A DNA stretch of 64,000 nucleotides from Gammaproteobacteria bacterium. GTDB lineage: Bacteria > Pseudomonadota > Gammaproteobacteria > G965277405. Position 1 is the stretch's first letter; each line of letters begins with the position of its first letter. The notes under the pieces are model-generated. The model saw only the letters and a list, made by a program, of their open reading frames with translations. It made no database searches and was not told the origin of the DNA. A program made the translations under genes and the position numbers. Positions 7,867 to 64,000 of this stretch are shown here, piece after piece. Location: the NCBI GenBank assembly GCA_965277405.1, contig OZ255726.1:1504001-1568000 (forward strand), read 5' to 3'.

Positions 7867-7871
7867 CGAAT

Positions 7872-8762: not shown

Positions 8763-8772
8763 TAGGTAAAGT

Positions 8773-9096
8773 ATGAACAAAATTAAAAGAGAAGATGAAG
8801 TCGTCATTCTCGCTGGTAAAGATAAAGGAAAACAAGGCAAAGTCATGCGATTCAAAGGCGATCGTATCTTTGTATCAGGCATAAATATGGTGAAAAAACA
8901 TAGCAAACCGGTACCAGCGTTAAATAAGCCGGGTGGGATTGTCGAGCAGGAATCTTCGTTGCACATCTCTAATGTGGCAATGTATAACCCCACAGCGAAA
9001 AAACACGACAAGGTCGGCTTCTCAATAGAAGAAAAAGACGGTAGGAAAGTTAAATTTCGCATTTTTAAATCAGACGGTAAACGGATAGACTCCTAA
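8773..9096 (+). CDS. rplX: 50S ribosomal protein L24
   Basis: GKDKGK-G, GGIVE-E, HISNVA. Confidence 0.99.
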
Positions 9097-16385: not shown

Positions 16386-16393
16386 GAAACAGC

Positions 16394-16951: not shown

Positions 16952-16999
16952 TCACCAACGCAGAGCTTAGCGCCGCTACATCACACAACAAAATGTATT

Positions 17000-18969: not shown

Positions 18970-18975
18970 CAGTTA

Positions 18976-19779: not shown

Positions 19780-19812
19780 TATCAGCAACACGGATTTACA
19801 CATAAAGAGGTT

Positions 19813-20838: not shown

Positions 20839-20841
20839 GCT

Positions 20842-21990: not shown

Positions 21991-22044
21991 CCGCCGTTGC
22001 CTACTGACTGCTGAATTTTAATTCACAATGCAGCCGTGAGATGT

Positions 22045-23658: not shown

Positions 23659-23794
23659 GTGAAATATCGTATAATAGTTAATACAGTGAGTGAACAAAAA
23701 TATCGTGTATGAGCCTTGGTATGCAACGATTCAGTAAATATCAATAATAACAGCGGTAAGCGGTGTATGCTAAATTATGCGGTGTTGGAATGTG

Positions 23795-23860
23795 CTTGTG
23801 CTATATAATGTACTTGTGCTATATCTTGTGCTATATCTTGTGCTATATCTTGTGCTATAT
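23795..23860. repeat. CTTGTGCTATAT x5 (four perfect tandem copies at 23813-23860 plus one at 23795-23806)
   Basis: Read directly. Confidence 0.95.
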
Positions 23861-23972
23861 AAAGTAGCGTAGGCTTACAATCAGTGCCTTTTGCTAGCAA
23901 ACGCGCGAATAGGATTTACTGCTGATTTGCTGTATTGGTTAGTTGGTCTAACTCACAGGTTGCACATACCAC

Positions 23973-24000
23973 TTGACATTGATACTGTAAAATTTAGATT
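23973..24000 (+). promoter_or_regulatory. Possible sigma70 promoter TTGACA-16 bp-TAGATT
   Basis: Perfect -35, 4/6 match at -10; motif match only. Confidence 0.3.
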
Positions 24001-24044
24001 TTTGTTATTATGCGGTTGCATCAGAGGCATCAGCAGTTCCCTAA

Positions 24045-29537: not shown

Positions 29538-29858
29538 TATAGCCGTGACAACTGTAACTAAGTTAAAAACAATAGAGAACTCATATTATCGACACAATCA
29601 CCGCAGATAAGATAATTATATTGAATGAAGGCAATCAATAAAAATTGTTTATTACACAAAAACCAAACCGCTATGCTTGCTTTATGTTGGGGTTATTGGT
29701 TACTATGGGCGTTGAATTTATTTCATAATGCTTACGGGCACGCTAGAACACCAATATCAATACTGAAGCAGCGTTGCAACAAAATAACATGCAATAGCAC
29801 CAGGTATTGCTGCCGAAAAAAACATTATTGTAAGCAGTCATTCCAACAGGAAATATTC

Positions 29859-43346: not shown

Positions 43347-43371
43347 GCGAGTTCATATATGAGAATTAAGC
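43325..43371 (+). repeat. About 23-bp tandem duplication at the A/B junction (core TATGAGAATTAAGC x2)
   Basis: 43335-43348 is identical to 43358-43371. Confidence 0.9.
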
Positions 43372-46300
43372 AAATGGCAAGTTCACTGGCATATACCAAA
43401 CAATATATTTGGAGATCTACGGCTATCGCCTTGCTGTTTATGCTCTCAGCGTGTACGGATGGCGCAGGTACAGTAACAGAGGAAAATTTAAGGCAGGCAG
43501 GGTTATTAACAAAAGCTGTTATTACTCCTGTTATCACTGATATTGTATTAGAAAAAATATGCACGGCTGCAGATTATACCGCTTGTAATAATAGCAATAA
43601 TCTTATTGATCCGTTTGCAGTAAATCAAACTACCATACAGGGTGATGCATTTGTTTATATCTTTAAAGTGGTATTTGATAGCAACAACGAACCTTTTCTC
43701 AACAAGGCAACATTGCGCACAGTTGAATTAGATAATGCCGAATTTGCTGATGCCACAATCCCTGTAAGCTCGCTTGCAGATGTTAATAAACAAGCAGATG
43801 ATGAAGATCCAAACAATGCAACAGCTACCGAGTTATATGCACAGCCTGCGTTTGAGGACAGATATACATACGCTATTTTAAAACCAATTGCCTTTACGGG
43901 TTCGGCTACTACTGGTAGTGGCTTAACTATTACCATCCCTGCAGGCTGGGTGTTTACGGTGAGTGGCAAAGGTGAGCCGATTTTTAATTCGGCATCATTT
44001 AGCAAAACCTTTACCATAGATTTGCTCCAACCTAAAATATCTGCGATATCTTTTGATCCGCCAACTGTCGGCGAATTGGTTAATAATGGCTATATTGGAA
44101 TTACTGATGCATTTAATAAGATTAATATATATATTACATTCAATAAAAATATGTATAAAAAAATTATTAAAGATAAAGATGATAAATATCATAAAAATAT
44201 AGACACAAATGATGATTTATTAGAGTGGGGAGATGTTAGTCACTCATCGATAAAAAAGTATGAGTTTCAATATAAAAGCGGGCTGACGGGAAGCAATGTT
44301 TTAATATTTACACTGTCAATAACTCCAAGTGCTGCGTCTGCATTGCAACACGATACTAAATTTAGCTTGCATCTTGCCAGTGATGCATTGGTAGATGCGG
44401 TTGGTAATGTCTTAGGTGGCATAGATCAAAATGATGATTTAAATATCTATTATCAAGATGATACCAGCAACACAATATTCACTGTAGATGCGCTAAAACC
44501 CCAATTACAGATTCCGGCACTGGCTGCACCACAAGTTCACAATGATGATGTTTACGACGGACGCACTGAAGTACTTGGAATTGGTGATAGCGTAAGTGTT
44601 GTATTAACATTTACTGAAAAGGTAACTTTTAATAATCACAATAACTTGCGTTTTAAAGTATTAGTAAGTGAGAATAATTATTCTAGTATAAATCCAAAAT
44701 ATTTTGTATTGACCTCTCCCGTTAAACAAGGAATACAACCGCTCGAATCATCTGACAAATTTACACTGACATATACTGTTAAAGAAGGTGATGGTGATAA
44801 CAATATAAATAGTGAAGATGGAAGACATTTTGCTAATAGTTCAGGATGGAACAGTGATCTTGCTGATAGAATTGATTTGCCTGAACAAAACTTGGTTGTT
44901 TATGATCAAGCGGGAAACTCTGTTGCAAATCTTTTGATAAATAGCTTGGAGTTGCCAGTTAATGGAGAAATTGATCAAGTTATAATTGATGGTAAACGAC
45001 CACAGCTTGGAGTTGATGGTATAACCAGCCGATTAAGCCGATTTATGAGCGGTGTACTAGGCGTTGAATCAGTTTATATTCAACAAAATGATAAGCTAGT
45101 TGTCGGAGTATATAGTAGCGAAAAACTAAAAACTAAAATCGACGGTAGCAATTATGACTTCAGGAGTGGTTCGATTTTAACCAGCGCCACGGCAATTGTA
45201 GACTTTTATAACACAGCTGGTGAATCGTTAAACAACCCCATCACCTTGGAGTATGACGCAGAACTATCGAAAATAAATATTCCTCATTCAAGCACAACAA
45301 CTATAGATGGCTCAAGCGATGTCCATAAAGATTTACGTGAAAAAATACACAAGGAAATATTTGGAGGTGATGCAACTAGTTTTGGTGTTGCTGATTTTAA
45401 ATATCCAATTAATAGGCTAGTTTTTTACAGTGCTCTTATGCCTGATCGCGAAGAGGCTGCGCAGTTACAACTTACCTCGATGCAGTTCAATAACACTGAT
45501 GTAACTAATCTGGTCGATTTTGCAGGTAATACATTGCAAGACCTTGATCCAGGGGGTTCATCTGTTCAGCTTAATCAACCAATTGACATGGGCTCACTCC
45601 AAGGTGATTTTTCAATCGAAGGATTCAATGCCTACCAGATGAATGACGCTGGAACAATGACTGCAGTCACAACGAACAGTAAGCACCGCTACAAAGACTA
45701 TGAATTAATTGCCGATACAATGTTTGTAGCACTGCATCTGAGTAGAGATATCGGTAGCGCGTCTACCAATATTGACTCGATGTCGATGATTGCCACTATT
45801 GATACATCTAATGATATATCTAATACACCTGCTAGCAATACCATAAATGTAATAAGCGAGGCAGCTGAATTAGGTACGGAATATGATTCGTCATATACTA
45901 ATATGATATTTTTTCCGTTTAAGTTGCCCAAACAAGCTGATCAACGGTTGCTAGATACCGACGGAATATCAGTTAAAATACAATGGGGTGATGGTATTCG
46001 GGTTGCAAAAATTAAAGATGAACTAGGCAACTGGCTGGCTGAATCTGGTATTTATTATAATGGCTCACATCTTATGCAGGACATGTTGGTCGATAATATT
46101 GATCCCGTCTGTGAATATAAACTTTCAGGAAAGCAGCTTAGCTATGCCACGCCGATTTTATTTTCATTAGCTGAAAACCACAATGCCCTCTATTTTCATT
46201 TAGTCTGTAATGAGGAAATCGGCTATAAGTACGCAGCTGATATTGCTAAAATACCATTTATCGAAACAGCCTTTGGTTTTGCAACAAATAATACCGATGA

Positions 46301-49300
46301 TACCCCCGACTTTGTCGTCCGTACAGATTTTCAGCAATTGTCGCCAAACAATAACCTGGTGTTTTCGTTGCCTGTAAAACCTGGGTATCAAGCGTACGGT
46401 CATAAACTGCGTATCCGCAACAAATCAGTGCAAAGGTATTATGATGTGACAGCTAACGAAGTTAAAAAAGAACGGATATTTACAGATGCTGCTGGCAATC
46501 CAATCACTACCTATTTTGCTACAGCACCAAACGATAGGTATATAACGCCAAGTGAATTTACAACATATGAGCAGACAGATAGTCCTGCTATTGTTACCAA
46601 CGTCGATATCGTTTTCGATACTCGAGCGTATCCAAAAACTGTTACTTTTTATCGAGCGTCAGCAGGATATCCAAAAGATCACCCAGCAGATACGTCTGGA
46701 AAAATATTGGTATCAACAAGGTATAAACAGTTTGGTGTAGAAATTACATTTAGTGACAAAACAGGCACGGACCGAAACATTGATGTTGCCGGACTAAATC
46801 AAGATGCGCAATTCGACTATTCGCTACCAATGCAGATGACAGACTCGAATCTGGCTGTTACGTTAGCCAGTAAAGTCGTTAATATTGCTGCAAATAGCAA
46901 GACAGTAAAGTTTGTTTTTGATTTGGATGACTTCCCAGGTACAATATATGAAAACCTAAAATTTGATACTGCAAGCATTCATGCATTAATAGATAACAAT
47001 GCAATTCCCAAAATTAAAACAATAAATAATTTCACAAATATTTCTGGAACAAAATATTCGATAACTCAACCTGTTTCTTTATTGTTTCAAGATACAGACA
47101 TTTCTAATGATTTTTTCAATAAAGTTCAAGTAAATAATGTCGTGCCAGAATTTGAAGACAATGTTAAAATTTATTATATTGAAAAACAAGACCCCTCCAG
47201 TGACACTGACCCGTTATACCAAGAGTTAGATATAAGAGCAGATAATGGTGATTTGAATTATGGCACATTCTATATTGCGCTAAGAACTGATGCTGCATTA
47301 ACGGTTAGGCCTAAGATATGGGATGTTGAAAGTGAAGAATTCGTAGAACATGACGTGCAAAATGTAATGTTAAATTTTTATGCTGCTGATTTACCCGTTA
47401 CTGCAAACTATGTGTTACCGACAGAGTTTCATGAAAAAACAGGCAGTACCAGTAGTGATGCGCAGATGATGTATTTTGCATTTGACTTTAATGCAGTGGC
47501 TCAGGCTGGGCGTGATTTTAAATTTTATCAGGCATCTGCAACAACTACAACTGACCGGGCAACCTACATCAGTGGCAATGATACAGCATACCTAGTAGAC
47601 AGATTTCACAATAGCATTGATGTTACCAGTCTCAGTAATGCGTTTTCGTTAGATAAGACATATACAGTTAATCTTGTAGCAACCAAAAATATTGTCAATG
47701 TTGAGTTTGTCGATGATGACTTTGTCACATATCAGTTTGATAATGGCAGACCGTTTTATAGCAATGGCGACACAATTAAATTGAGAGTTGATTTTAATAC
47801 GCTAATAACTTATGCAGAATTTGATAACGAAGTATATGCTATAGATATTGAAGTTGCCGACCAAGATAATTCATCGGATAAAAAGAAACTTTTTTTAGAG
47901 AAAACACTATCAGGAATTAGCACAGATGCATCTGGGAATTTGCATTCGTATTTGATATTTAGTAAACGTATTACAGATTCCATGGAGTTTAATGCTGACA
48001 GCAGGTCATCAGCATTTAAGCTCATCACGGTGAGTGACAATATTTATCTGTGTGCACGGAATGAAATCGACAACACCGAAGTCGCGAACAGCGAACCTCA
48101 TCTTGATTGTGCAAATTCAATGCTAGTAAAGGCAGCTAGTGTGGATGGCAGTGGTGCCCCGCTAAGTTCGCGATTTTCACAACAACAAGTGGACACAATT
48201 GAAAGGTTGCGGATTAACTCAAAACTCAACTATGTGCGCGATGATGGCAACGATAAACCAGTTGTTGCTGCGTATACTAGAGAAAAAGACAGTAGCAATA
48301 CATTAGTAGCAGATAGTGAAAATAAGGTAGTAGCGCTTGATGCAAGCAAGCCATTGCGTCACGGCGATAAGTTATTGTTTGAATTTATTGTAGATTTAGA
48401 TCAAATATATGACTTTACCAGTGCCTCATTGCCAACAAACAGGTTAGTGGTTAAAGAAAATAATGAAAATCTAGCTAAATTAAATATTCAAATTGCAAGG
48501 AGCAGTAATGGTTATGATCTTTTGCCAGTAACGATAGCACTCAACGAAAATTCATCAGAATATAATGATAGTGCAGTTTTATTTGAATATACGGTAAAAA
48601 AAGGGGATCTGAGTAATATCCAAATAACAAAACCATCTAATCAGCATATCAGCGTTGACACACTAACAATTAATACAGCAGATTTATTTGTTGCTAAAAC
48701 TGCAATTGTTGACGAAATACACCAGAATCATATTGACAGCAAATTTGAGAATCCAGTCGACGTTACCTTCGATTTTATTATTGATACCCGCCCATACATT
48801 ACAGCTATTAAAGTTGTCAATAACTTTAATAACACTATATATACTAAAAATGATCAGTTAAAAGTTCAGTTAACTTTTGATCAGTTGGTTATGCCATCAG
48901 CTGCTGTCAGCACCACAACCTCTATGTTGAAAGTGAATTTATCGAGTGATTCCTTAGCTGCTACTTGCCGAGCAGAATTTGCGCTTGCTTATAACAACCA
49001 TAGCGGCAATACAATTGATTTCCAAGGAGCACTGCCCGCGGATTGCCATCAATATGATACAGCGGCACAACTAGTCGTAGCTGAGTTTTATAACAATATA
49101 ACTGCTGATTTAAGTACTAGCGCATATTGGTATTCTGCTGAAATAAGCGTTGCTGCAACCAGTGATAGATTATTGGTAGACCAGCGCCTTGATGTAAGTG
49201 TAGCTGATGGCGGTATTAAACTGTATACCAAACCATTAACATTTGTATCAGCGCAGATTGGCAAAGTAGCGACTACAAATCACAGCTGTTCTGCTGCGCC

Positions 49301-52300
49301 GTCACTACCACCAATCAAAATAAAAATAAACGATACCCTTTGTGTGCAGCTATCAACTCAAAATAACACAGCAACTAACAATGATACTCCCCCCCTCTAC
49401 CTCGTCACAGAGAATAACTCCCCGCAACTGATATTGCAGGGCTTTGGTGTCGATGGAATGCCGCAAGAAATTGCATTCACCCAGCCACAGGTGATTAACG
49501 GTGCAAATGCTACCGATACATCAACTGATATTGTGTTTACTCATACCATAACAAGTAATTCTGCTTGGTTAACAAATCCAGCAAATACAAAATATACATA
49601 CATATATAATGGTGCAGTCAAATTGTTTAACGCGGATAACGCTGATAACGCTGGAGAGCTAACTGCGCCAGCCGACCACCATTATGTCAGGCACGTAAAT
49701 AGCATTCAGGTGCTTGGCAGCGATATCAATACCCCGTCATTCAACTTAGTGGCAAGTGCAGATGCAATACAGCGAGCGTTAACTGCGTTTAATACCAACT
49801 TCTATGTTGATACACGCTCTATATACTACACTATAGACACAAGCACAATACAACCAGTTTCAGCACCATATCTGTTGCAAGATAAGATTACCTTCACCAT
49901 GAATATGAGTGGTGATGAGCAGATTGGTGAACGCTCAATTGGTGATTTTAGATTGCTTGCCGACCTTAGCTCCGACAGAGCGGACACAGCAACATTGGAG
50001 ATTGAATTTGCACTGATTGATACTCCAACAGCAACATTAAAGTTCGTATCCGTAGCATTACCTCCAGACAATAACGGTAGCTATACGCTTAGAAATTTCC
50101 GACCAAAACCCAATACTTCAGATTTAATCAGCAACAGTACTAGAGCGACAATAAATTACGATAAATTCAACGATATTGCAGCTAATATAAAGCTCAATAC
50201 AGGTACCATCGCCTTAGATAGCATTGCCTTACAATTAACTAACAACAGCGATGATGTGAATATCGCCAGCTATCTAGCCAATGTAACTTCATATATTGAC
50301 CTTGCGAATCAACCGCAACTACTCACAACAGCTGATATTGGCAAGTATCTGCTGTTTACAGTATCATCTAGTGAGGCAAATACCAAAGAAACACCCCTGA
50401 AAAAACCCGAGTTAGAGCTAGGACTACGCTTTGTGTTAGACAGGTCAAACGACATAATAAGCCACAGGACAGCTGAATTTGTTGACCTGATACAGCAGGA
50501 AAATGACGACTACACTGCAGACGCTATTTTTAAATATCAAATTCAAGATGGTGATTACAGCAATACCACAGTCAATGACACGCTATTATTTGGTAAAATA
50601 CAATTCAACACAGCCAATGCTGAATTATTGTTTGCTGGAATAACTGATGATAATTATTTTTCTGCTGATGGCGGTTCAGCGGTTGCACTGGATACAACAA
50701 ATTTAAACACCAGTATTGAGGCATTTGCTGACAATTTGCAGATTAATACAGCGAATGACTTTGCCAGCCTAACCATTATAGCTGAAGACGGTGGTGTAAC
50801 CCGAGCCAGCACTGTCTACGTTCAGGAAGAGTCAATATACCTTACATTGGACTCACAACCAGCGTTGCTATATTTCGATCCAGCTACAGCTACGCAACAG
50901 CACGCATATCTTGATGTATCGGTAGACGGTGTCAATGCGCAAGGCTCCACCACGTCAAGCACCTTGCGTTTTCAATTGCAATCATTTGCAACTACTGGGG
51001 AACAGCGCATTAAGTTTAAAGCAAATGTCGCTGCTTTACTCGCGCAATACAACGGCATTACCCCAGATAATCCCCTCACATTCAAATTTTCTACAGCCAC
51101 AATTACCATGCCTGCATCTGCAACAGGCACAACGGTGCAGATATATAGGCAAGTAAATGGTAAAAAAACATATTTGCATAACAAGCTCTGCCACGCAGCC
51201 GCTAACAACTGCAGTATTCAAAATAAATCACTCAGTTTTAACCTAAACAAACTCAAAATTACAGCTATCGCCATTAAAGGCGCACATGCGCCAACTGTTG
51301 TTGCTGATACTCCTGCAGCAGAAATTGCAGCGATTGAGGAAAATTATAATACCTCAGCTTCAGTTGTAGTTAATAACCAACCTGCACGCAATGGTGATGA
51401 TTTACGCACTGGCGATTATTTAATATTTGAAGTTACCACCAATGCCGATGATATCTCGGCTGATTTAGCTAATGACCAACAACTGAAATATGTAACATTC
51501 ACTATTGAGGATTATCAACAACAACCAAAAATATTAAGCTCAATTCTACCAACAGCATTGGCGCAGTATGCCACATACCGTAGGCCCATTATCCAAGCCA
51601 ATACAACGATAGGGTTTCGCTTCTATTACAAAATACAACGTGGTGTGTTTGCTAACATCGCATTTCAAGAAAAAGACTACCCCAATATTAGCATTGGCTA
51701 TAGCGCAGCTGACAACAGCACCTTTATGCCCCATGGGGTTGCAGGCGCGCTGGTAGCCCGATCATTCCATCCCAATGGTAATAATCTGACAGAGAAAGTG
51801 CTCAAACTTACCTCTGAACGCAATCAATTTAACGTAAGCAATGACGCATTGGTTGTCGACACCAGAATACGCGTGACCGCTGTAGCAATTGATGCCGCTT
51901 ATAATCGTGCCACGCAGCTGATAGGGACGCACCCAGATTCAGACAAGACAATAACCGTAACTCTGGATCATAGGGTTACCGCAGGTACTGGTTTTGCGGC
52001 AACAGCTGTGAGGCTCCATGCTGATTTTGCTAATTTTACACCAAATATTGTAGGCGGCACAGACTACAGCACAGACTTTTGGATACAGGAAGATAATAGA
52101 ACCAGATTTACTAGTGGAGTGAACTCAAGCGATACAATTCAATTTACCTTAACTGGGCGGCATGGGCGCGCAGGACCGCATACACGCGTATTAGATTATG
52201 CACAAGACACAGTTAATGCTGAGGGTAATGCTGAGGGATATACGCTCACTTTCAATTCCCTTGCAATCAATACCATCGATTTGTATTGGGAAGAAGAAGA

Positions 52301-55300: not shown

Positions 55301-58300
55301 AGTCATGGTATGGGCAGGTGAACTGTTGCTCCACGCCACCTTTAATAACGCAGCTAATAACGCAGCTAATAACGCAGCTAATAACGCAGCTAGCACTGAT
55401 GGCACGCGGCGTATTCCATATTTGTATTCAACACATGCTGGCACACAACATGTATTTGGCTATAGAACCAAAACCGCAGATATAGGTACCAGCAGTATTG
55501 ATATTAACCGCGTTCAATCGTATGTAATGGGGAGGTATAGCGGCACAGGCGATATTTTTGTAACGCAGTCAACGGCACAGTCGCCAATTCAAACAACTGG
55601 TGCCAACGCAGCTGTTGCCTTTGCTAAAACTATAAACAAGAACTTTGTGATTCAGATAGTTGCCACAGCTGGCGATAGTAATAGCAGCGCCTACAAACTC
55701 ATCAGTGCCATAAAATTTGATGGCTCTAGTGTTACAACATGTGGTGGCACAGCACCTATTTGCGCCATCACTGATACCGCCAACAACGGCAAATATCAAA
55801 CGGTTACAGTTAATGACAATGACAATGACAATGGCAGTGACAATGTTGATGCCACGGTTAGCACGAGTAATGGAGCTTATGTGTTTGCAGGTAGCGCATT
55901 AAAGGCAGAAAACACTATAAATGTAGCAGCAAAGCCCAAACTAACCATTGTTGCCGTGCTCAGCAATGTTACATTTGCCAACACAGAGCATCCTCCAACC
56001 CACACCGTATTCAAAAACCCGCTGCTATCATTTATAGGTATTGGCGAACTGGGAACAGAATACACTATTGCGCTTGATGTCCAAAAAGACCGCTCGCATG
56101 GTCTGGGGCTATACTGCGGTGGCGGCTGTTATATATCTTACAGATTATCAACATTGCAACAAGATTCGTTGGCAGGGGATGACAAAAACATCTTGGTTAT
56201 CGAACACTATAGCGGCGCAGCTGATCAAACTCGTTTTCAAGCACAAGATATTAGTATCAGTCTCAATGGAGATAGCCTAACCATTGTCCAAGATAGCCAA
56301 CACGCCAACTCTAATATTGCCATCAGTAATTTCGCAACATATATCGGCGGGCGAGCAATATTTAGTAGTAGTCCGCTGACGGCAGTCAAGCCAGCGATTG
56401 ATGACACACTCAACACGATTGCGTTAGGTAGCTTTCATTTATATGACTTCAGCGTATTTACTGCAGCAATGGGTAGTTTATTGCCGTGTTATATCGATGT
56501 ATTGGGGCGCAAATACGCAAGCGTGGCAAAATGGCAATCCACGCTTGTCGATCAATCAGTTTGCAATGTCAGGCAAAGTATTGCGGCAGGTGTTGCTGCA
56601 GCAAACCTCGTGCTATGGCTGGATCCGGACCCCACATACTTGGATTTTAGCAGCGACGGCAGGGTAGATACCTGGCTGGATAGATCAGGAAGAAACCACC
56701 ATGCCAGCGTTGACATTGTTCGTACCCGCAACATGCGCTCTATTGCCGCTAAGTTCTCAAATGGACAATCCCTGCTAATTACAGACGCATCAAGCGCAAC
56801 TGGCAGCGCTAACAGGGAATATTTCGAAAATGCGTTGACCAATGACCAACGCAGCACAATAAATTTTGCAACAGCAAACCGTGCTGCTGGTGAGACAATT
56901 TATACAGCTGCAAATTACTTTCAGCAAGACGTGCACCGCTATTATCATGGCGTGTTTAGCGAGGATGACTTTAGCGAAGATAGCCAACAACTCACCGCAT
57001 TTGCGGTATTTATCACCCCAACCAGCAACAGCAAGCCGCAGCCGCGCAGCTTGTTTTTACTCGATAACGAACCTGATGACAGCGCATATAGAGCATTAAC
57101 TCCTAATAGTTTTGAAGTATTTCGCTTTGGTTCAAACTACCCACAACAAATTCTTGGAACCTTTGATGCCAACACCATCATTGGCTATCCACATGGTTTA
57201 TATGCAGGTAAAACCGTGCCAGTACCGCTGATGCGTACTTTGGCTACTAAATATTATGCAACTGAGAATAGCGACCCATTCAGCACCTATTCAACGGAAA
57301 AACCACGGCTGATTGCCAAAGAATATAGCTGGCAGCAGTATGCAACTTCGCAAATAACAACGCTTGCCGTGCGGGTAAATCTTGCCAACAGCCCCGCCAA
57401 TAGCTATCAATATTCGATAAATGGCTCAGACTTTATTACAGATTTTGATAGCGCTGCGCGTGCTACATCGTTCAATGGCTACGCGCTGGGTTTATTGCAA
57501 GATGCCCAAGGTGCCGTGTTTGATAACTCATACGACACCGGCATCGCCTGGGGCGATGTGCTGGTCTACGACACAGCATTATCAAATACCCAGCTGCGCC
57601 AGGTCTTCCAATATTTGCAATTAAAATATGCAAGCCATTTTACCCAATCGGTTTTTGCCAGCAATTTACCCAATATTTTAACCAGTGAAGGACTGCTTAT
57701 TTATGCTACAGCAAACACAGAATTTCTTAACAAGTACAAAAACAACACCGCAATCGGGCGCGATGATCAACAAGGATTTTATAAAGTTTGGGGACAGGCT
57801 AATGAAAACTGGAGTCTCGACCAAGATCATTTTCGTGGCTATACCGAAGGTTTTTCCGCAGGTGGCGTCCCTGGTAAATTATGGGTGAACTCGCTGACCG
57901 GCTCAGACAGCCGCAGCAATCAATATGGCGACTACCGCAAGCCAGACTCATTGTTTGTCACCATTGCCGATACCAGCCAACTCGATAATCGTGAGTTTTT
58001 AACGTGGAGCTATAAAGACAGCTCGTATAACTTCCCAACTTCAAAATATATCGGAGTGGAAGGCAACTATGACGTTGAGCGCATCCAGCGGATATATAAA
58101 TTCGCTGAAATTGGCGAAGTTGGTCTCATTAGTCTCAAATATATCAACGGGATTAACTCGCGTGGTTTTTCCAAAAATGTACGGATTATTATCGCCGCAA
58201 ATGAAGCGTTTACGCAAAACGTCCGTAAGCAGGATTTACGCGCCATCCAAACGTCAACAAGTAATTCTCGTCATGTATACGGAACAGCAGCACCAATACA

Positions 58301-61300
58301 AATCAATAATGGAGAATTTGTTGCGGTTGAATTTTTAACGCCGAGCAAGCAGCTCAACTATGCCGAGAATATTTGGTTTTCATTTTCACCAGATAAAGTT
58401 GAATATAATCAACAGCTAGAGTTGTTAGATGCAACAGTAAGATCGTTCCAAAACATTCCAAACCTCAGCGTTATCGCTTGCCCATCCTGCGTACTTTCGT
58501 CACGGCCTGCTGGCAACAAACAAGGACTACATGCCCCAACAGCAGCTGCAAATGGCTTTACGTATACAGATGCTAACTTGGGAGAATCAGCAACACAGGT
58601 TGCTGAAAAAAACCTATTGATTGCGTTTGGCATCGGCAGCAATGGCTGTACTCCACAGGCGGTAACCCACCTATACCAAGAAACAAACCCAGCCGCATCA
58701 ACAGTCGATATAGCCGTTATCTGCGCCGCTAGCCAAGCAAGCAACCCACAACTATCAATCACCCTCACAGCCGCAGGATTTGGTTTTAGCGATTTTAGCC
58801 AAGGGGTTGGCGGTGATAATCAAAATTTGAGTCAAAATTCCAGCGCAAATACCCATACATTTACCGTCGATATTTCCGCAGATTCAGACCACTTACTTGG
58901 GTTAGTGTTAGAGCCGAATTCCCGATATCTGCTTACTATTGATGACCAAATATTGGTAGACAGCACCAGCACATGGGGGACTGGGGTATTTAAACCTTGG
59001 AGTCCAGCGACAAATCAAACACATGGATTAAACCATGCCCCAGCTCAAACCAACCAGCAAGCACTAGCTATTTGGCTATATGAACTGCGCGTTATTTACG
59101 CCAGCCCATACACCAATGCCACCAGCGAGTTTGCCCGCCATTTGAACGCGATGGCTATTGAGCATGGTTTTCCAGTGCCCAAGTCTATTGCCTTTGCATA
59201 CGAGAATTTTTCTTGGAATAGAGCGCATGACTTGTTTGCCAACAACCCAGTTTTCCTTGCTAATACAGGTAAATACCAAGGAAAATCTACCACGATAGCC
59301 AGCGATGCAGATATCAGTTTTAGTGTTGATGAAAGTCTGTTTCAAGGCAAGCAGCAGCAGTTTTTGATATACGCAGATAATGGTAATTCTTTTACACAAG
59401 CGGCTAATATAGCGGATAATTTTACCCCGCAAGCAATCGCCAACATTAGCGCTGTCAGCAACAAAGGCTGGCGGTTTTTTAGCAACGTCTCATTGGGCAC
59501 TACCACCGTTACCATGCCAAGCCCATCAGACAGTCATAGCAATTCATATGTATTGGTGCTCGATGCCAATAACAATGGGGTAGATGCTGCCGATAGGCGT
59601 ATCCCGCTATCATCAACGCATGCAACAGCAACGAATACTCCACATAAACTGTTTGGACAGCTCCCCATTAGCGCGGGCAGGAGCAGCGTCTATGTTGCGA
59701 TAATCAACCCAGCAATATATACATCAGCCCAAGCTCTGCTGGTTACGCCAGGGTCATATACCACAGGTAGCAAGATTGAAGCTACACTGACATTAGCCAA
59801 ACCTGTAGACATTAGCTATGATGCTACAGTCACAAACGCTAGCCCTGCGACGCTTGACTTTATTTTCTCAAATGCAGGCGGCGACAATCCACAGCCGCAA
59901 CAAGCGACGTTGAACTATCCTCTCGCAGCTAGCACAGAGTTGGTATTTAGCTATACCGTACTAGCGGGTGATAGCAATGCCAACGGTGCAGTGCTGTTGC
60001 CAGCTAACCCCGCGATCAACTGGGGAACAGGTTTAGTTATTACCAAGCCGAGCACTACTGCTGGAGTAACAGTGCTACCATCTTTGGCTGGGATAACATT
60101 TACTGGCACACGGGTGTATGTTAATACAAGCCCACCACAACCTGTGGCGGTGCATGTTGAAAACAACCAAATATGGTACGGACTCGATGCAAAAATTGCT
60201 ATTGGCGTACTATTTGACAAATATGTAACAATAGCTACTACAGCTGCTACAGCTAACAACCCAGCAATAGCCTTGACTATCGACAAAAAAGACGGCACAA
60301 CTACAACTGTTCAAGCAATAGCCACTAGAGCAGATGATAAAAAAATAATTTTTGAGTATGTTGTCGAGACAGGGCTATTTGATAGCGACGGCATAACCTT
60401 GCAACAACAACAAACAGAAGAAGTAACGATCAGCAACTTTGCCAACATCACCACGTATGGCCTAGCAGCGACAACTGGCAATATCACAGCACTGGCAAGT
60501 GGTATCGGCAGACAAATAAAAGTTGATAGCCAAGCGCCAATATTGACATCCGCAAGGTTTGATGTAGCAGATTACACCCTCACTATTGGCGACACCTTAG
60601 CTGTTGCTCTTGAATTTTCAGAGGAGGTTGCCCTGACCAACGCTGGTATTAAACTAAGACTACCAAATATAGACGGCAGTCGCGCCCTATCCTTAACCGC
60701 TATCAGCGCCCGCGATACATTAGCAAGCACGCATAGATTTATGCTTGCCGTTACCGATAGTAATTTTATTTTTCCATCACCGCCACAGCTGCAAGTTGTC
60801 AACGCCACTGCAATCCACGATATTGCTGGCAATCAACTCGCTGCACATACAGCCAAAACCATTGCAGGAACAGCAGTTGGCTTTGAAAACACCACCAAAG
60901 CAACCATTATCCAAGCACAGGTGCTAGCCCCACCATTTGCAGATGGCCACTATGTGCTGGCACTCACGTATAACCGCGCAGTGCATGTCCAACCAAATGC
61001 AGTATTATCAGTAGCGCTCAATATTGGTGTGAATAATGCAGGCGCAACACCAGCAACACGCTCCATGGCGGCACTTGTTAATCACCACACGCTCGAATTT
61101 AACCTCGGCAGCAACGTCACCGCGTTATCAGCTAACGACACCCAGTTGAGCATTATTAGCAGCAACCCTTGCCAAGCTACCGCCGCCACCACAACCGCTG
61201 CAGCTGTCGCCACAACCACCGCCTGTATTGTCGATAGCGCCAAGCAAGCCGCGGACTATTCGTTTGCAGCCTTTGCCAGCAATATTGCTTTGGACAAAAT

Positions 61301-64000
61301 CATCCCAACAACCAACGCACTGCCAATACAAGGCTTGCAAGGCTGGTATTATCCAAGTGATGACCAAGGATTTGTCGCCACAGCAGGCTGTGAATCTGCT
61401 AGCAATGCGCTGAGTTGCCTGCGTGATATCCATGGTGCCAATCATGTTGAATTTTTAGACCCTGCTGTGTCGCCAAACATAACAAACACCCACAAACCAA
61501 CATTTGTATCGCCAGGGCTGGTATTTCATAACTCGGTTGGCATAGCCAAAAATGAGTTTGATGCAACCAATGGCATTACCATCGCCGCGGTGTTTGTACC
61601 CAGCCAAGACGCAACAGCGGATAGTTGCCTGCTCGCAGTAGGCGATGCTAATAACAGCATGCGCCTGTGTTATCAATATACGTCCAGCACAGACTCAATT
61701 CACACCTATACCATTACCGCAACTAACGGTAATAATACCGCCACAATTGCTGCCACCACAGCTGCCGCAATAGCTGACGCAGCAATATTCACAGTCGTCA
61801 GCGCAACAGCTACAACGCTGACGCTGGCAACAAGCGCCAACGTGACAGATGATGATACCTCAGCCGCGGCTGCGTTGCCTGTAGCAGCCCAGCTAGTGCT
61901 TGGTCATGCCAGTGCAGCTGGAGGCGCCGCAATACAGCAACCATTTATCGGCAGCTTGCAAGAATTAGTCGTCTACAACAGCGGTAAAAATAGCTGCGAA
62001 ATTGCCAATATAGCCAGCGCGATGCGTAGCAAACCAACTAGCTTGCCGTGTGTCACTAATTTAGCAGGGCTTACTGATGCCGAAATCTCAGCTAATGATA
62101 CAACGCCAAGTATTGCCTTTTGGCTGCGACCAGAAGATCTCAACTTCAACGCCGATCGCTCGTATACCTGGCGCGCCAACACCCACACTGATAGCCCGAC
62201 TGCAATTACCTCTAAGCCAAAGCTAACAAGTTTACGCCAGTTATCAAAAGATCCAGTTTTTGGTGGACTGCGCGTTGGTAACGATGATCCAAGTGGTGAT
62301 TATCAATGGCAACATGAAGCAGAGGAACACCGTAACCCTGCCTTAACAATCCCAGGCCCCCTGATGGGCGTCGGCTTAACCGTAGCGAATAACATTATTT
62401 ATATAGTTGCTAAATTTAAGGCAAAAGGCTGTTTGCTAATATTGGGCTATGTAGATGAAATATCCGACCATCAAGAAAGAGAAAATAATGTTATTCCTTG
62501 TGGGATGTCTAGTCACAGAATGAAAACACCATTTGCAGTTGCACAAACTGTTATAGCAGCCAAGAACTTGCTTTTAAATACCGACGTAGTCACCGCAAGA
62601 ATGGGAAATATTCGCAATGCACAATGGTTCCCTGCGCAAATAATTACTATTGATGGTCGATATCGCCAAGGCCAAACAGGTGGTTTATCAATAAATGGCT
62701 ATACCAATAATCAAACATTTAGACACCAAGGAAATGCAGGTTATGGGACTATAATACATGACTATAGCGCATTCACCCGTGGCGGCGGCACCCTCAACGA
62801 GATTATCGTCATCAACAACGCTGCAGACAATCTAGCTACCCAGCAGCTCGCAACCAAAATAGCTACCTACTTGTCAGTCAAATACGGGGTTGTTGCCGAT
62901 AATCGCTATGGAGATATAGCAGATCAAAGTGTCGATCTAAGCACCATCCGCTCCAGTACGGGAATGCTGTTGTCAAATACCAACGAGCGATATACATATT
63001 TTTCACAGCAAAATATGCCAAGAACGATGGCAAGCAACGACCGTTATTCATTTGCAGTGCTAGGCAGCGACGCTGGCTTGGGAATCAACAACCTCAAGGC
63101 AGTATTGACAGATTCTCCCAATGTCCATTTTGAGGCGCATTTACTCGCAGCAACAAATAACTTGATTGCATTTAACGGCAGAATACTCAACCAAGGTGGG
63201 GAAAGGTTGGCAGATTATGAGGTGGATTGGACGTATCTTAAATCGTTTGTTGATGATATTACCCCAATTAAATATTCAATAGCCCAACAGTATGAATTCC
63301 CACTCCATGTTTACCAAACCACCACCGCTGCTGCCACAACAGTCCATTTTGATGCATATGTTGCCAGGCAGAAATATCTACTTGGCTTTGATTATGCGCT
63401 ATATGTGTATGATGGCGATGGCGATGGCGATGGTGATATTTCGTTAGCGGGTACCTTCTACCCAATGACAAAACATGAATACATTAGTGATAGCAACAAT
63501 GATCTGTATCAAAAACAACGCCTGAGCGCTACCGTTACCTTAAGCGATAAGCAGTTTTTTACAGTCGCGCGCATCCGCACTGGCAGCAACAGGCCAGCAA
63601 TCTGGCTCAAAGCCGCAGACGTGGATATTGTCAACAGAAAATGGAAAAATGCTGGCGCGCTACCGCTAACCTTAGCGTTTGACCCAGCCGCGCACATAGA
63701 AATTTTGCAACAAAGCAATGGTATGGCTGCCCTCAATATTCAACAATATCGAGGACGGCAAGGAATAACACCGCTGCGCGTGGCAGATAATTTTGCTGGG
63801 CATGATATGCCGCATCTGTATGCAGTTATTAAAAACGACGTAAATGCCGTGCCTGCGGCACAGCGTAATAAATATTTTTGGCAAGGTTCGAGTAACGTTA
63901 ATCTCTTCGCTATCATCCCCCAAGGGCAGAACTTTAGCGCAGCAGCCAGCAGCCAAGACGTCGCCTGGTATTATGATAAAAGCTGGAGTGAGGATGTTGC
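43359..64000 (+). CDS. Giant predicted lipoprotein B (over 6880 aa, runs off the window end): Ig-like repeats, FN3, several LamG-like modules
   Basis: Starts MRIKQMASSLAYTKQYIWRSTAIALLFMLSA-C (lipobox Cys at 43452); spot translations at 43.4, 54, 56.6, 57.5, 61-63.5 and 63.96 kb are open; the track lists no ORF in this frame, consistent with no stop codon. Confidence 0.88.
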   Translation, partial: MRIKQMASSLAYTKQYIWRSTAIALLFMLSACTDGAGTVTEENLRQAGLLTKAVITPVITDIVLEKICTAADYTACNNSNNLIDPFAVNQTTIQGDAFVYIFKVVFDSNNEPFLNKATLRTVELDNAEFADATIPVSSLADVNKQADDEDPNNATATELYAQPAFEDRYTYAILKPIAFTGSATTGSGLTITIPAGWVFTVSGKGEPIFNSASFSKTFTIDLLQPKISAISFDPPTVGELVNNGYIGITDAFNKINIYITFNKNMYKKIIKDKDDKYHKNIDTNDDLLEWGDVSHSSIKKYEFQYKSGLTGSNVLIFTLSITPSAASALQHDTKFSLHLASDALVDAVGNVLGGIDQNDDLNIYYQDDTSNTIFTVDALKPQLQIPALAAPQVHNDDVYDGRTEVLGIGDSVSVVLTFTEKVTFNNHNNLRFKVLVSENNYSSINPKYFVLTSPVKQGIQPLESSDKFTLTYTVKEGDGDNNINSEDGRHFANSSGWNSDLADRIDLPEQNLVVYDQAGNSVANLLINSLELPVNGEIDQVIIDGKRPQLGVDGITSRLSRFMSGVLGVESVYIQQNDKLVVGVYSSEKLKTKIDGSNYDFRSGSILTSATAIVDFYNTAGESLNNPITLEYDAELSKINIPHSSTTTIDGSSDVHKDLREKIHKEIFGGDATSFGVADFKYPINRLVFYSALMPDREEAAQLQLTSMQFNNTDVTNLVDFAGNTLQDLDPGGSSVQLNQPIDMGSLQGDFSIEGFNAYQMNDAGTMTAVTTNSKHRYKDYELIADTMFVALHLSRDIGSASTNIDSMSMIATIDTSNDISNTPASNTINVISEAAELGTEYDSSYTNMIFFPFKLPKQADQRLLDTDGISVKIQWGDGIRVAKIKDELGNWLAESGIYYNGSHLMQDMLVDNIDPVCEYKLSGKQLSYATPILFSLAENHNALYFHLVCNEEIGYKYAADIAKIPFIETAFGFATNNTDDTPDFVVRTDFQQLSPNNNLVFSLPVKPGYQAYGHKLRIRNKSVQRYYDVTANEVKKERIFTDAAGNPITTYFATAPNDRYITPSEFTTYEQTDSPAIVTNVDIVFDTRAYPKTVTFYRASAGYPKDHPADTSGKILVSTRYKQFGVEITFSDKTGTDRNIDVAGLNQDAQFDYSLPMQMTDSNLAVTLASKVVNIAANSKTVKFVFDLDDFPGTIYENLKFDTASIHALIDNNAIPKIKTINNFTNISGTKYSITQPVSLLFQDTDISNDFFNKVQVNNVVPEFEDNVKIYYIEKQDPSSDTDPLYQELDIRADNGDLNYGTFYIALRTDAALTVRPKIWDVESEEFVEHDVQNVMLNFYAADLPVTANYVLPTEFHEKTGSTSSDAQMMYFAFDFNAVAQAGRDFKFYQASATTTTDRATYISGNDTAYLVDRFHNSIDVTSLSNAFSLDKTYTVNLVATKNIVNVEFVDDDFVTYQFDNGRPFYSNGDTIKLRVDFNTLITYAEFDNEVYAIDIEVADQDNSSDKKKLFLEKTLSGISTDASGNLHSYLIFSKRITDSMEFNADSRSSAFKLITVSDNIYLCARNEIDNTEVANSEPHLDCANSMLVKAASVDGSGAPLSSRFSQQQVDTIERLRINSKLNYVRDDGNDKPVVAAYTREKDSSNTLVADSENKVVALDASKPLRHGDKLLFEFIVDLDQIYDFTSASLPTNRLVVKENNENLAKLNIQIARSSNGYDLLPVTIALNENSSEYNDSAVLFEYTVKKGDLSNIQITKPSNQHISVDTLTINTADLFVAKTAIVDEIHQNHIDSKFENPVDVTFDFIIDTRPYITAIKVVNNFNNTIYTKNDQLKVQLTFDQLVMPSAAVSTTTSMLKVNLSSDSLAATCRAEFALAYNNHSGNTIDFQGALPADCHQYDTAAQLVVAEFYNNITADLSTSAYWYSAEISVAATSDRLLVDQRLDVSVADGGIKLYTKPLTFVSAQIGKVATTNHSCSAAPSLPPIKIKINDTLCVQLSTQNNTATNNDTPPLYLVTENNSPQLILQGFGVDGMPQEIAFTQPQVINGANATDTSTDIVFTHTITSNSAWLTNPANTKYTYIYNGAVKLFNADNADNAGELTAPADHHYVRHVNSIQVLGSDINTPSFNLVASADAIQRALTAFNTNFYVDTRSIYYTIDTSTIQPVSAPYLLQDKITFTMNMSGDEQIGERSIGDFRLLADLSSDRADTATLEIEFALIDTPTATLKFVSVALPPDNNGSYTLRNFRPKPNTSDLISNSTRATINYDKFNDIAANIKLNTGTIALDSIALQLTNNSDDVNIASYLANVTSYIDLANQPQLLTTADIGKYLLFTVSSSEANTKETPLKKPELELGLRFVLDRSNDIISHRTAEFVDLIQQENDDYTADAIFKYQIQDGDYSNTTVNDTLLFGKIQFNTANAELLFAGITDDNYFSADGGSAVALDTTNLNTSIEAFADNLQINTANDFASLTIIAEDGGVTRASTVYVQEESIYLTLDSQPALLYFDPATATQQHAYLDVSVDGVNAQGSTTSSTLRFQLQSFATTGEQRIKFKANVAALLAQYNGITPDNPLTFKFSTATITMPASATGTTVQIYRQVNGKKTYLHNKLCHAAANNCSIQNKSLSFNLNKLKITAIAIKGAHAPTVVADTPAAEIAAIEENYNTSASVVVNNQPARNGDDLRTGDYLIFEVTTNADDISADLANDQQLKYVTFTIEDYQQQPKILSSILPTALAQYATYRRPIIQANTTIGFRFYYKIQRGVFANIAFQEKDYPNISIGYSAADNSTFMPHGVAGALVARSFHPNGNNLTEKVLKLTSERNQFNVSNDALVVDTRIRVTAVAIDAAYNRATQLIGTHPDSDKTITVTLDHRVTAGTGFAATAVRLHADFANFTPNIVGGTDYSTDFWIQEDNRTRFTSGVNSSDTIQFTLTGRHGRAGPHTRVLDYAQDTVNAEGNAEGYTLTFNSLAINTIDLYWEEEDELRTFVDWSIDIDGNNSNSNIIQGIKITANAAELQTIEVSTDASNQPLQVGDNIVLLAKIATESGFDLTIDATTDLSLKFKIQSFTKENQGELVSKTAAFASWITDDTVDDTLDDTPAKNIGAKFVYTVAAGDLYNLRFPMLQQNTAVQALYTIGADLSFDVARLFNKPIDSGNGNPINTTATTLANPASISINTAPTATGMQLNSAFNSAVEYVDNANANTLYVTLTYPDDSIDVAKTRAYSNSALHVTVNGHDRTFDSIPSNTFKVGANDVAEFTANTLSYQYVFDISADNNDFSTDTLLTVQPVRMVFDNNGVIENSDKYAGMTEVLTQQGQGFMPLFNDFTAMPAADIFSEDYDFRAGVFEFSTDVLLDYSENSENDSDNIHSTATENSENGSDDLIYLGERDVLHIYISTTTANNNLRSFTQVSEDNQDNQDNQEPTAEINTIMLRMASGTLIARQATQSVCFANGMQTAATATCNFMRFDVTLPNYADSSTDAANCISIGSATCGVSNVASLLIQDQGNTEYTTSLVVEQLTPSAASAANADFTTRHAIRNHIKTGNEYGVSLADRIVVEPTPARVSPTFDVDTVAEFKVSWQDVAHASKYILTYNVSGDSDATTDIIAFNSDSENNDITFAGIAGKMYIISITAVNAAGKYLPPLPNYRTLTQYASLPTIADVSIDVLTKAGETKTVAADNKYQLVAGEKIQFTFQLNIDISGDPSTRQEFNTNIGGKRFAIQFYFGDKLRSLSNLAIAEATDHKKLYFQYTVQQDDVAEYVTLANPVAISLLDSGFPLQNIKGTNIINYTIPLDDADTAQLGRLNVANTSPTVIAIQTSENVAYSTEANANGLIDIWVYFNKAISYASPNNNAAPSITFTADIEGEDNTAQDLQARYQSISGNTALFRIDLAAADNDKNWSSNELRLTANEIANHNSLQNADKTQSINPDIALFKKDFIVTLQHVQQDAESASDVVITQTSSRAGIFGVGELLTFTVATKTPVMVWAGELLLHATFNNAANNAANNAANNAASTDGTRRIPYLYSTHAGTQHVFGYRTKTADIGTSSIDINRVQSYVMGRYSGTGDIFVTQSTAQSPIQTTGANAAVAFAKTINKNFVIQIVATAGDSNSSAYKLISAIKFDGSSVTTCGGTAPICAITDTANNGKYQTVTVNDNDNDNGSDNVDATVSTSNGAYVFAGSALKAENTINVAAKPKLTIVAVLSNVTFANTEHPPTHTVFKNPLLSFIGIGELGTEYTIALDVQKDRSHGLGLYCGGGCYISYRLSTLQQDSLAGDDKNILVIEHYSGAADQTRFQAQDISISLNGDSLTIVQDSQHANSNIAISNFATYIGGRAIFSSSPLTAVKPAIDDTLNTIALGSFHLYDFSVFTAAMGSLLPCYIDVLGRKYASVAKWQSTLVDQSVCNVRQSIAAGVAAANLVLWLDPDPTYLDFSSDGRVDTWLDRSGRNHHASVDIVRTRNMRSIAAKFSNGQSLLITDASSATGSANREYFENALTNDQRSTINFATANRAAGETIYTAANYFQQDVHRYYHGVFSEDDFSEDSQQLTAFAVFITPTSNSKPQPRSLFLLDNEPDDSAYRALTPNSFEVFRFGSNYPQQILGTFDANTIIGYPHGLYAGKTVPVPLMRTLATKYYATENSDPFSTYSTEKPRLIAKEYSWQQYATSQITTLAVRVNLANSPANSYQYSINGSDFITDFDSAARATSFNGYALGLLQDAQGAVFDNSYDTGIAWGDVLVYDTALSNTQLRQVFQYLQLKYASHFTQSVFASNLPNILTSEGLLIYATANTEFLNKYKNNTAIGRDDQQGFYKVWGQANENWSLDQDHFRGYTEGFSAGGVPGKLWVNSLTGSDSRSNQYGDYRKPDSLFVTIADTSQLDNREFLTWSYKDSSYNFPTSKYIGVEGNYDVERIQRIYKFAEIGEVGLISLKYINGINSRGFSKNVRIIIAANEAFTQNVRKQDLRAIQTSTSNSRHVYGTAAPIQINNGEFVAVEFLTPSKQLNYAENIWFSFSPDKVEYNQQLELLDATVRSFQNIPNLSVIACPSCVLSSRPAGNKQGLHAPTAAANGFTYTDANLGESATQVAEKNLLIAFGIGSNGCTPQAVTHLYQETNPAASTVDIAVICAASQASNPQLSITLTAAGFGFSDFSQGVGGDNQNLSQNSSANTHTFTVDISADSDHLLGLVLEPNSRYLLTIDDQILVDSTSTWGTGVFKPWSPATNQTHGLNHAPAQTNQQALAIWLYELRVIYASPYTNATSEFARHLNAMAIEHGFPVPKSIAFAYENFSWNRAHDLFANNPVFLANTGKYQGKSTTIASDADISFSVDESLFQGKQQQFLIYADNGNSFTQAANIADNFTPQAIANISAVSNKGWRFFSNVSLGTTTVTMPSPSDSHSNSYVLVLDANNNGVDAADRRIPLSSTHATATNTPHKLFGQLPISAGRSSVYVAIINPAIYTSAQALLVTPGSYTTGSKIEATLTLAKPVDISYDATVTNASPATLDFIFSNAGGDNPQPQQATLNYPLAASTELVFSYTVLAGDSNANGAVLLPANPAINWGTGLVITKPSTTAGVTVLPSLAGITFTGTRVYVNTSPPQPVAVHVENNQIWYGLDAKIAIGVLFDKYVTIATTAATANNPAIALTIDKKDGTTTTVQAIATRADDKKIIFEYVVETGLFDSDGITLQQQQTEEVTISNFANITTYGLAATTGNITALASGIGRQIKVDSQAPILTSARFDVADYTLTIGDTLAVALEFSEEVALTNAGIKLRLPNIDGSRALSLTAISARDTLASTHRFMLAVTDSNFIFPSPPQLQVVNATAIHDIAGNQLAAHTAKTIAGTAVGFENTTKATIIQAQVLAPPFADGHYVLALTYNRAVHVQPNAVLSVALNIGVNNAGATPATRSMAALVNHHTLEFNLGSNVTALSANDTQLSIISSNPCQATAATTTAAAVATTTACIVDSAKQAADYSFAAFASNIALDKIIPTTNALPIQGLQGWYYPSDDQGFVATAGCESASNALSCLRDIHGANHVEFLDPAVSPNITNTHKPTFVSPGLVFHNSVGIAKNEFDATNGITIAAVFVPSQDATADSCLLAVGDANNSMRLCYQYTSSTDSIHTYTITATNGNNTATIAATTAAAIADAAIFTVVSATATTLTLATSANVTDDDTSAAAALPVAAQLVLGHASAAGGAAIQQPFIGSLQELVVYNSGKNSCEIANIASAMRSKPTSLPCVTNLAGLTDAEISANDTTPSIAFWLRPEDLNFNADRSYTWRANTHTDSPTAITSKPKLTSLRQLSKDPVFGGLRVGNDDPSGDYQWQHEAEEHRNPALTIPGPLMGVGLTVANNIIYIVAKFKAKGCLLILGYVDEISDHQERENNVIPCGMSSHRMKTPFAVAQTVIAAKNLLLNTDVVTARMGNIRNAQWFPAQIITIDGRYRQGQTGGLSINGYTNNQTFRHQGNAGYGTIIHDYSAFTRGGGTLNEIIVINNAADNLATQQLATKIATYLSVKYGVVADNRYGDIADQSVDLSTIRSSTGMLLSNTNERYTYFSQQNMPRTMASNDRYSFAVLGSDAGLGINNLKAVLTDSPNVHFEAHLLAATNNLIAFNGRILNQGGERLADYEVDWTYLKSFVDDITPIKYSIAQQYEFPLHVYQTTTAAATTVHFDAYVARQKYLLGFDYALYVYDGDGDGDGDISLAGTFYPMTKHEYISDSNNDLYQKQRLSATVTLSDKQFFTVARIRTGSNRPAIWLKAADVDIVNRKWKNAGALPLTLAFDPAAHIEILQQSNGMAALNIQQYRGRQGITPLRVADNFAGHDMPHLYAVIKNDVNAVPAAQRNKYFWQGSSNVNLFAIIPQGQNFSAAASSQDVAWYYDKSWSEDV
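55344..55391 (+). repeat. AATAACGCAGCT x4 in frame (NNAA x4)
   Basis: Read directly. Confidence 0.95.

Follow-up and report, generated by a model that had tools for sequence, protein, structure and literature searches.

The last 20 kb of this window, a 64,000-nucleotide stretch at contig positions 1504001-1568000 of a single-contig genome (2,174,577 bp, 44.8% GC), raise the question of whether one giant gene lies beneath the short plus-strand frames listed there and, if so, what kind of protein it would encode. A sequence-only reading of the window had proposed a real gene of more than 20.6 kb, stop-free from an ATG at 43359 to base 64000 and with its C-terminus outside the window. Translation bears this out: the frame runs from 43359 to 63998 on the plus strand (6,880 codons, 3'-open) with no in-frame stop between 43359 and 64000. 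Upon extending the frame through the genome sequence, we found its stop at contig positions 1574467-1574469, equivalent to window positions 70467-70469 and 6.5 kb past the window end, which gives a gene of 9,036 codons and 27,111 nt with the stop (27.1 kb), here called G2. None of its 9,036 codons is a stop, whereas in the other five frames stops make up 3.4-10.2% of codons, and the chance of an open run of this length, calculated from base composition, is about 1e-236. When open-ended frames are excluded, 12 plus-strand ORFs of 60-99 aa are listed across G2; as had been claimed, these are shadows in another frame, all of them starting 1 mod 3 while G2 starts 0 mod 3. G2 itself is missing from the track because a frame still open at the window end is left out of ORF lists, a practice that hides genes of this kind. 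G2 is a real, intact gene.

A second giant gene, G1, ends just upstream of G2, and the features that frame the pair are these:

29859..43346, plus strand: G1, upstream giant lipoprotein gene, 4,495 aa, with ATG 29859, AGGA 8 nt upstream of it and lipobox V-A-G-C.
33459..49358, plus strand: low-GC3 block from about aa 1200 of G1 to about aa 2000 of G2, GC3 0.24-0.33 against 0.42 +/- 0.07 for the genome.
43335..43371, plus strand: 14-nt direct repeat TATGAGAATTAAGC, copies 23 nt apart, the first holding the G1 stop and the second the G2 start codon.
43359..64000, plus strand: G2, giant lipoprotein gene, in-window codons 1-6880, continuing to the stop beyond the window.
43359..43454, plus strand: G2 lipoprotein signal peptide, aa 1-32, with a basic n-region, the hydrophobic stretch AIALLFM and lipobox L-S-A-C32.

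The longest ORF of G1 spans 29625-43346 and opens 78 codons before the likely true start at ATG 29859. Its N-terminal signal ends ...IIMLLFGLVAGC, and Pfam matches it only once, with an fn3 domain at aa 3811-3895 (long-form numbering). Over their first ~480 aa, G1 and G2 are colinear (BLASTP 46 bits, E 1e-9, 21% identity), with more weak colinear matches further downstream, and both carry after the lipobox the motif E[ED]xLxxAGLLT, which in that context occurs nowhere else in the genome. The two genes are thus tandem paralogs, old or fast-evolving, each with its own signal. They also share a reading frame with only the TAA and four codons between them, an arrangement that, along with the 14-nt repeat at the junction, would suit a single gene of about 13,600 codons broken by a recent or read-through TAA. 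We consider a single gene very improbable: the presence of a separate signal on each protein argues against read-through, G2 has a complete signal of its own and an N-terminal region colinear with that of G1, as tandem paralogs do, and a lipobox in mid-protein would have no use. Moreover, neighbouring ORFs fall in the same frame one time in three by chance, and the TAA stop of G1 is seen in the sequencing-run contigs that cover the junction.

The DNA had been described as AT-rich, which holds for the 5' end of G2, at 36% GC, but not further on, where GC climbs to 45-48%; beyond the low-GC3 block, the GC3 of G2 is typical of the genome. The block suggests a mosaic origin, for instance an imported or recombined tract across parts of G1 and G2. 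Comparable recombination tracts spanning neighbouring giant genes are described for giant4-5 of A. kunkeei (PMC12863079), and giant genes are generally said to differ from their own genomes in oligonucleotide usage (a statement cited in PMC11573180).

Three runs of one study contain G2 DNA, and the unitig contigs of two of them were compared with the assembly over window positions 43000-62999. The compared runs may be the assembly's own source, and their agreement is therefore one of consistency and not independent proof. Run X2 covers the region in two long pieces (43000-55372 and 55363-62999) that match the assembly with 0 differences; their sole link is a 38-nt unitig lying at a 12-nt coding repeat. 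The pieces of run X1 show 5 single-base differences. No single piece in the compared runs spans the whole of 43000-62999, and the short-read unitigs break at two in-frame coding repeats, both of them likely hotspots of length variation:

55343-55392: 12-nt in-frame coding repeat, 4.2 copies, NNAA units, a short-read unitig break point.
55812-55845: 6-nt in-frame coding repeat, 5.7 copies, ND units, a short-read unitig break point.

The frame might instead be an artefact of assembly or have no function, in keeping with which no contig of the compared runs spans the stretch and the unitigs break at short coding repeats. We find this scarcely credible, since the probability of the open run is so small, the contigs of both runs agree with the assembly to the extent just given, and the signal peptide and cysteine pairing of G2 are features of a protein.

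In the third run, which is of low depth, an 18-nt insertion (6 codons) lies in a DNQ repeat near aa 3411 (window 53589), and a 1,932-nt contig skips 351 nt, or 117 codons (window 58688-59038; aa 5110-5227); both indels (+18 nt and -351 nt) are multiples of 3. The SNPs in G2 (4 synonymous, 5 non-synonymous, 0 nonsense) number nine, too few for a selection test. Purifying selection had been proposed for this frame; the direct evidence for it is thin, being made up of the open frame itself, the frame-keeping indels and the lack of nonsense SNPs. As a separate observation, the contig carrying the deletion has a depth of 22.6, compared with about 2-6 in neighbouring contigs of the same run.

Given an intact gene, we asked where its product would reside. 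The N-terminus of G2 is MRIKQMASSLAYTKQYIWRSTAIALLFMLSAC, in which the signal reads ...RSTAIALLFMLSAC32, and Met6 at 43374 offers an alternative start. Under a lipobox criterion of [LVI][ASTVI][GAS]C following a basic n-region and a hydrophobic h-region, applied as a crude regex with inspection, both G1 and G2 have the sequence of Sec/SPII substrates. The genome encodes LspA (Peptidase_A8, 140.6 bits), LolA (135.4 bits) and a DsbA-family protein. Residue +2 is Thr in G2 and Gln in G1, neither being the Asp of the E. coli Lol +2 rule, which may not hold in this lineage. The mature G2 protein has 9,005 aa, a mass of 979 kDa and an acidic pI of 4.8.

Taken in order and leaving out Cys32, the 42 cysteines of G2 make 21 consecutive pairs. 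In 20 of these the partners lie within 50 aa of each other, and the median spacing is 18 aa inside pairs versus 398 aa between pairs. Not one of 100,000 random placements matched these 20 close pairs (maximum 13), and for G1, in which 10 of 11 consecutive pairs lie within 50 aa, again 0 of 100,000 placements equalled the count. On this spacing, the paired cysteines of G2 look like disulfide-stapled extracytoplasmic modules. A scan of the protein for RTX motifs, GGxGxD nonapeptides and LPXTG found 0, and no internal membrane segment was convincing, there being two weak Ala/Ile-rich stretches only. The beta/alpha hydrophobic-moment ratio of G2, a crude index, is 1.06, which is like that of known beta-rich proteins of the genome (1.02-1.14) and unlike that of a TPR protein (0.73). 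We also note that the 117-codon deletion in the third run would take out Cys5122 of the pair 5097/5122.

Searches of G2 against known families and structures returned little. It had been supposed that the product is not a PKS or NRPS, and neither Pfam nor NCBIfam places a PKS/NRPS domain in it; Pfam gives no match at E <= 1 anywhere in G2, and NCBIfam none at E <= 0.1. In the PDB, single-sequence searches over all parts of G2 gave nothing below E 0.29, and profiles built from its own modules gave no sequence match. Word-seeded searches of 5.8 billion clustered proteins, in which G2 1-5000 was queried against near-length targets and 4300-6880 and 1-2700 against shorter ones, found no relative of residues 1-6880. 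Six-frame searches with residues 1-3000 were likewise negative in the 40 nearest genomes, all of which share only the class, and in 399 other genomes of the class, one of them unscored. No relative emerged from metagenome contig scans with residues 1882-6880 and 1-1881 or from a species-genome contig scan with the N-terminal alignment of G1 and G2. Among the genomes compared, the genome itself has no relative nearer than class level.

An exhaustive HMMER search with the last 1,200 aa of G2 (7837-9036) against 1.84 billion representatives returned 36 matches at E <= 1e-3, the best at 70 bits. These sort into two zones, query 213-522, matched by Big_5 proteins, and query 800-929, matched by Laminin_G_3 proteins, and the ten best are all unnamed or 'hypothetical protein'. 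Matches in the LamG zone overlap an annotated Laminin_G_3 in P0019 and a Sialidase-N LamG-like region in P0009, and fall outside the best annotated domain stretch in P0016, P0020 and P0007. As far as such alignments indicate, the external similarity of the C-terminal region is weak and module-level.

In Pfam, the Big_5 model (PF13205) is not matched by G2 above cut-off, and Laminin_G_3 (PF13385) has no direct match. A Big_5 profile seeded from residues 120-228 of P0014 (Pfam Big_5, 118 bits) finds seven modules in G2 at i-E 3e-9 to 3e-18, with 0 in G1 and 0 in reversed controls. HH-suite assigns 92-99% to these seven modules, scores that are circular because the modules are part of the profile, and 70-76% to a marginal candidate at 407-482. 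A LamG profile built from the C-terminal module and its external matches scores 36.8 + 68.1 bits on G2. The putative modules, identified transitively, are as follows:

48783..49025, plus strand: Big_5-like Ig module 1, aa 1809-1889, transitive profile, i-E 2.8e-9.
54777..55115, plus strand: Big_5-like Ig module 2, aa 3807-3919, transitive profile.
56571..57635, plus strand: LamG-like module, aa 4405-4759, profile search.
59712..60833, plus strand: three consecutive Big_5-like Ig modules, aa 5452-5557, 5590-5696 and 5723-5825.
61509..62000, plus strand: LamG-like stretch (third, marginal), aa 6051-6214, 7.4 bits where reversed sequences reach at most 0.7.
Past the window: two Big_5-like Ig modules, aa 7577-7675 and 8189-8289 of G2.
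Past the window: second LamG-like module, aa 8300-8790 of G2.

The Big_5-like and LamG-like modules together cover ~1,720 aa, about 19% of G2, and the other ~81% is unassigned. Several candidates picked by eye were not supported by Pfam or profile searches: LamG-like modules near aa 5236 and 6252-6620, a stretch resembling fn3 near aa 3600-3690, and a proposed kinship of 'post-LamG tails'.

G2 is large, presumably exported, lineage-specific and compositionally mosaic, traits that would also suit a giant toxin or a protein that delivers effectors, for instance a polymorphic toxin. We regard a toxin as improbable, as neither Pfam and NCBIfam nor the flanks show a signature of a toxin, an enzyme, RHS/YD, haemagglutinin, RTX or an immunity gene.

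We then considered the ~81% of G2 that carries no assignment. The blastp self-comparison at 1e-5 shows no internal repeat, and the blastp and phmmer self-comparisons together give 0-5 weak matches. Iterating 222 window seeds against G1 and G2 added a second member to 6 of them, always the counterpart in the other protein, and these window-seeded profiles produced no de novo module family within G2. The BLOSUM62 diagonal autocorrelation over 680 offsets has its maximum at z 3.6 in G2 and z 3.1 in G1, whereas the same measure on two giants of the genome with He_PIG repeats, G3 and G4, reaches z 86 and 64 at 92-96 aa. The unassigned part of G2 is not cryptically repetitive.

Together with G1 and G2, these repeat proteins belong to a set of six giant ORFs that take about 4.3% of the 2.17-Mb genome, the other four being (contig coordinates):

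596925-625655, minus strand: G3, He_PIG Ig-repeat lipobox protein, 9,576 aa.
15513-24470, minus strand: G4, He_PIG Ig-repeat lipobox protein, 2,985 aa.
140789-148891, plus strand: G5, He_PIG repeats with Peptidase_S8 and a P-domain, 2,700 aa.
544194-550709, plus strand: G6, RCC1-repeat lipobox protein, 2,171 aa.

G3, G4 and G5 resemble G2 in being giant (2,700-9,576 aa), in having Ig-like modules and in being presumably at the surface, and G3, G4 and G6 share the lipobox. Unlike G2, which gives no He_PIG match, G3-G5 score 241-622 bits with Pfam He_PIG over 7-25 stretches; the sole cross-match of G2 to the He_PIG giants is marginal (G2 ~6001 versus G3/G4 ~101, E 1e-3 to 2e-4).

How such a protein might leave the cell was approached through the gene content of the flanks and of the genome. 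Upstream of G1 and G2 lies a divergent MiaB/RimO-type radical-SAM enzyme; downstream are a GT2 glycosyltransferase, pseudouridine-metabolism genes, a glutamine synthetase-type enzyme and ArgG. The genes downstream of G2, which the sequence-only reading had proposed to inspect along with the stop, are of a housekeeping nature, and the flanks of the pair, housekeeping throughout, yielded no secretion genes. RTX/type I giant adhesins (LapA, SiiE, MpIBP) are megadalton-scale, acidic, Ig-module fibres on Gram-negative surfaces, made without a Sec signal, ending in RTX repeats and a T1SS signal, and encoded beside ABC/MFP genes. In contrast, G2 has a lipoprotein signal, 0 RTX nonapeptides and housekeeping flanks, and apart from a TolC-type protein nothing else in the genome points to a T1SS.

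The genome holds T2SS components (secretins, GspL) and three Slam/T11SS genes, at contig positions 349605, 1369869 and 1378842, a family that is present in 0 of 14 control genomes. With the Slam genes and GspL, the cell is equipped to display surface lipoproteins. Each Slam lies beside its own HphA and TonB-dependent receptor, in three paralogous cassettes (contig coordinates):

1364974-1372050, plus strand: TonB-dependent receptor-HphA hemophore-Slam-TPR cassette.
1373944-1380681, plus strand: TonB-dependent receptor-HphA hemophore-Slam-TPR cassette.
348299-355379, minus strand: TonB-dependent receptor-HphA hemophore-Slam-TPR cassette.

By analogy, these cassettes suggest heme scavenging, as in host-associated bacteria. 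G1 and G2 (1533625-1574469) are ~154 kb from the nearest Slam. Slam/T11SS cargo proteins (TbpB, fHbp, HphA) are proteobacterial surface lipoproteins that cross the outer membrane, and are defined, in the account of 10.1101/2024.09.26.615229, by a C-terminal 8-stranded barrel and usually encoded next to a Slam; by sequence and gene position, G2 shows neither trait. At the sequence level, the last 2,155 aa of G2 have no Pfam match at E <= 1 that would indicate a T11SS cargo barrel, and phmmer comparison of the G2 tails with the three HphA proteins of the genome gives nothing at E <= 1.

We favour, with some confidence, the explanation that G2 is an intact, lipid-anchored, exported protein of ~979 kDa displayed as a surface fibre, and we read both G1 and G2, from the features predicted in them, as giant surface-anchored binding proteins; G2 is probably a cell-surface fibre or adhesin. 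In this scheme G1 and G2 would very probably be co-transcribed, and the 9,036-residue G2 precursor would be exported through Sec, lipid-modified at Cys32 and then cleaved by signal peptidase II (LspA). Outside the cytoplasm, about 21 short-range disulfides would stabilise it. For the most part, the mature protein would be a string of modules that are each unique and bear no recognisable likeness to one another, interspersed with a few divergent Ig-like and LamG-like lectin-type ones and presumably with no enzyme, toxin, RTX or membrane-spanning part. Lol would sort it to the outer membrane, where it may form a long displayed fibre, tethered by its lipid, that attaches to a host or particle surface via its lectin-like modules, or else coats the cell. 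If expressed, G2 probably dominates the contact of the cell with its surroundings or host.

Most proteobacterial lipoproteins face the periplasm by default. This general expectation, the lack of a surface-export partner beside G1 and G2 and the undetected T11SS cargo barrel would also accommodate an envelope-internal lipoprotein, held in the inner leaflet of the outer membrane or in the inner membrane as a periplasmic scaffold or spacer. We judge a periplasmic location unlikely: a ~979-kDa chain of extended modules should greatly exceed the width of the periplasm, modules of the LamG-like and Ig-like kinds typically occur in extracellular binding proteins, and the other giants of the genome are likewise lipobox proteins of Ig repeats. 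Somewhat less likely again is a matrix or coat protein whose anchor is transient and which is shed or secreted into an extracellular layer or biofilm matrix, for example through release by G5, which bears Peptidase_S8 and a P-domain. Giant proteins of A. kunkeei are reported to occur in cell-free supernatant (PMC12863079), but G2 gives no sign of cleavage or release, and shedding departs from surface display only in the steps after export.

The A. kunkeei proteins are also the closest parallel to the tethered surface fibre that we propose. As described in PMC12863079, Giant1-5, of 3,000-8,000 aa, are encoded in tandem by giant genes which, like G1 and G2, take up several percent of a small genome, and they share with G2 an N-terminal Sec signal, an atypical Asn/Ala-rich composition and a narrow phyletic range. 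Long imperfect internal repeats, a C-terminal DUF5776, an SPI signal and a Gram-positive host are features of the A. kunkeei giants only (PMC12863079); G2 differs from them in having no periodicity, no Pfam domain, an SPII lipobox and a proteobacterial-type class, and there is no sequence relation between the two.

G2 had been called unusually large, and in this respect the description must be qualified, as its length is documented elsewhere and it is the architecture and isolation of the protein that are unusual. The catalogued proteins with 5,000 aa or more number over 41,000, with surface proteins given as the second bacterial class after NRPS/PKS (PMC11573180), and proteins of >10,000 and even >30,000 aa are documented, the latter in Omnitrophota (10.1101/2023.11.21.568195). 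The size of G2 alone is unremarkable. A survey of the open-access full-text literature by title and start of abstract returned no giant lipid-anchored adhesin, which does not prove absence. Giant bacterial surface proteins as such are known, but to our knowledge nearly all consist of repeats of a recognisable domain and leave the cell by T1SS, T5SS or T9SS. G2 differs in being at once lipobox-anchored, aperiodic and, within the searches described, almost without relatives.

A bolder reading, which we hold only tentatively, is that G1 and G2 form a private family of non-repetitive megadalton lipoproteins, each with ~80 different disulfide-stapled modules, mounted on the outer membrane by none of T1SS, T5SS and T9SS and perhaps by neither Slam nor T2SS. 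If so, the family would be a rich source of unseen extracellular folds and would point to an undescribed export route for very large lipoproteins. For structure prediction, G2 would supply some 7,000 residues of extracellular sequence that no class yet covers.

Lastly, Rfam has 0 matches within the window, and promoter and terminator scans return sites that are no more numerous than in shuffles. At window positions 22045-25178 on the minus strand, a few kb upstream of G1 and G2, there are a 550-aa ankyrin-repeat protein and an IS5-type DDE transposase.
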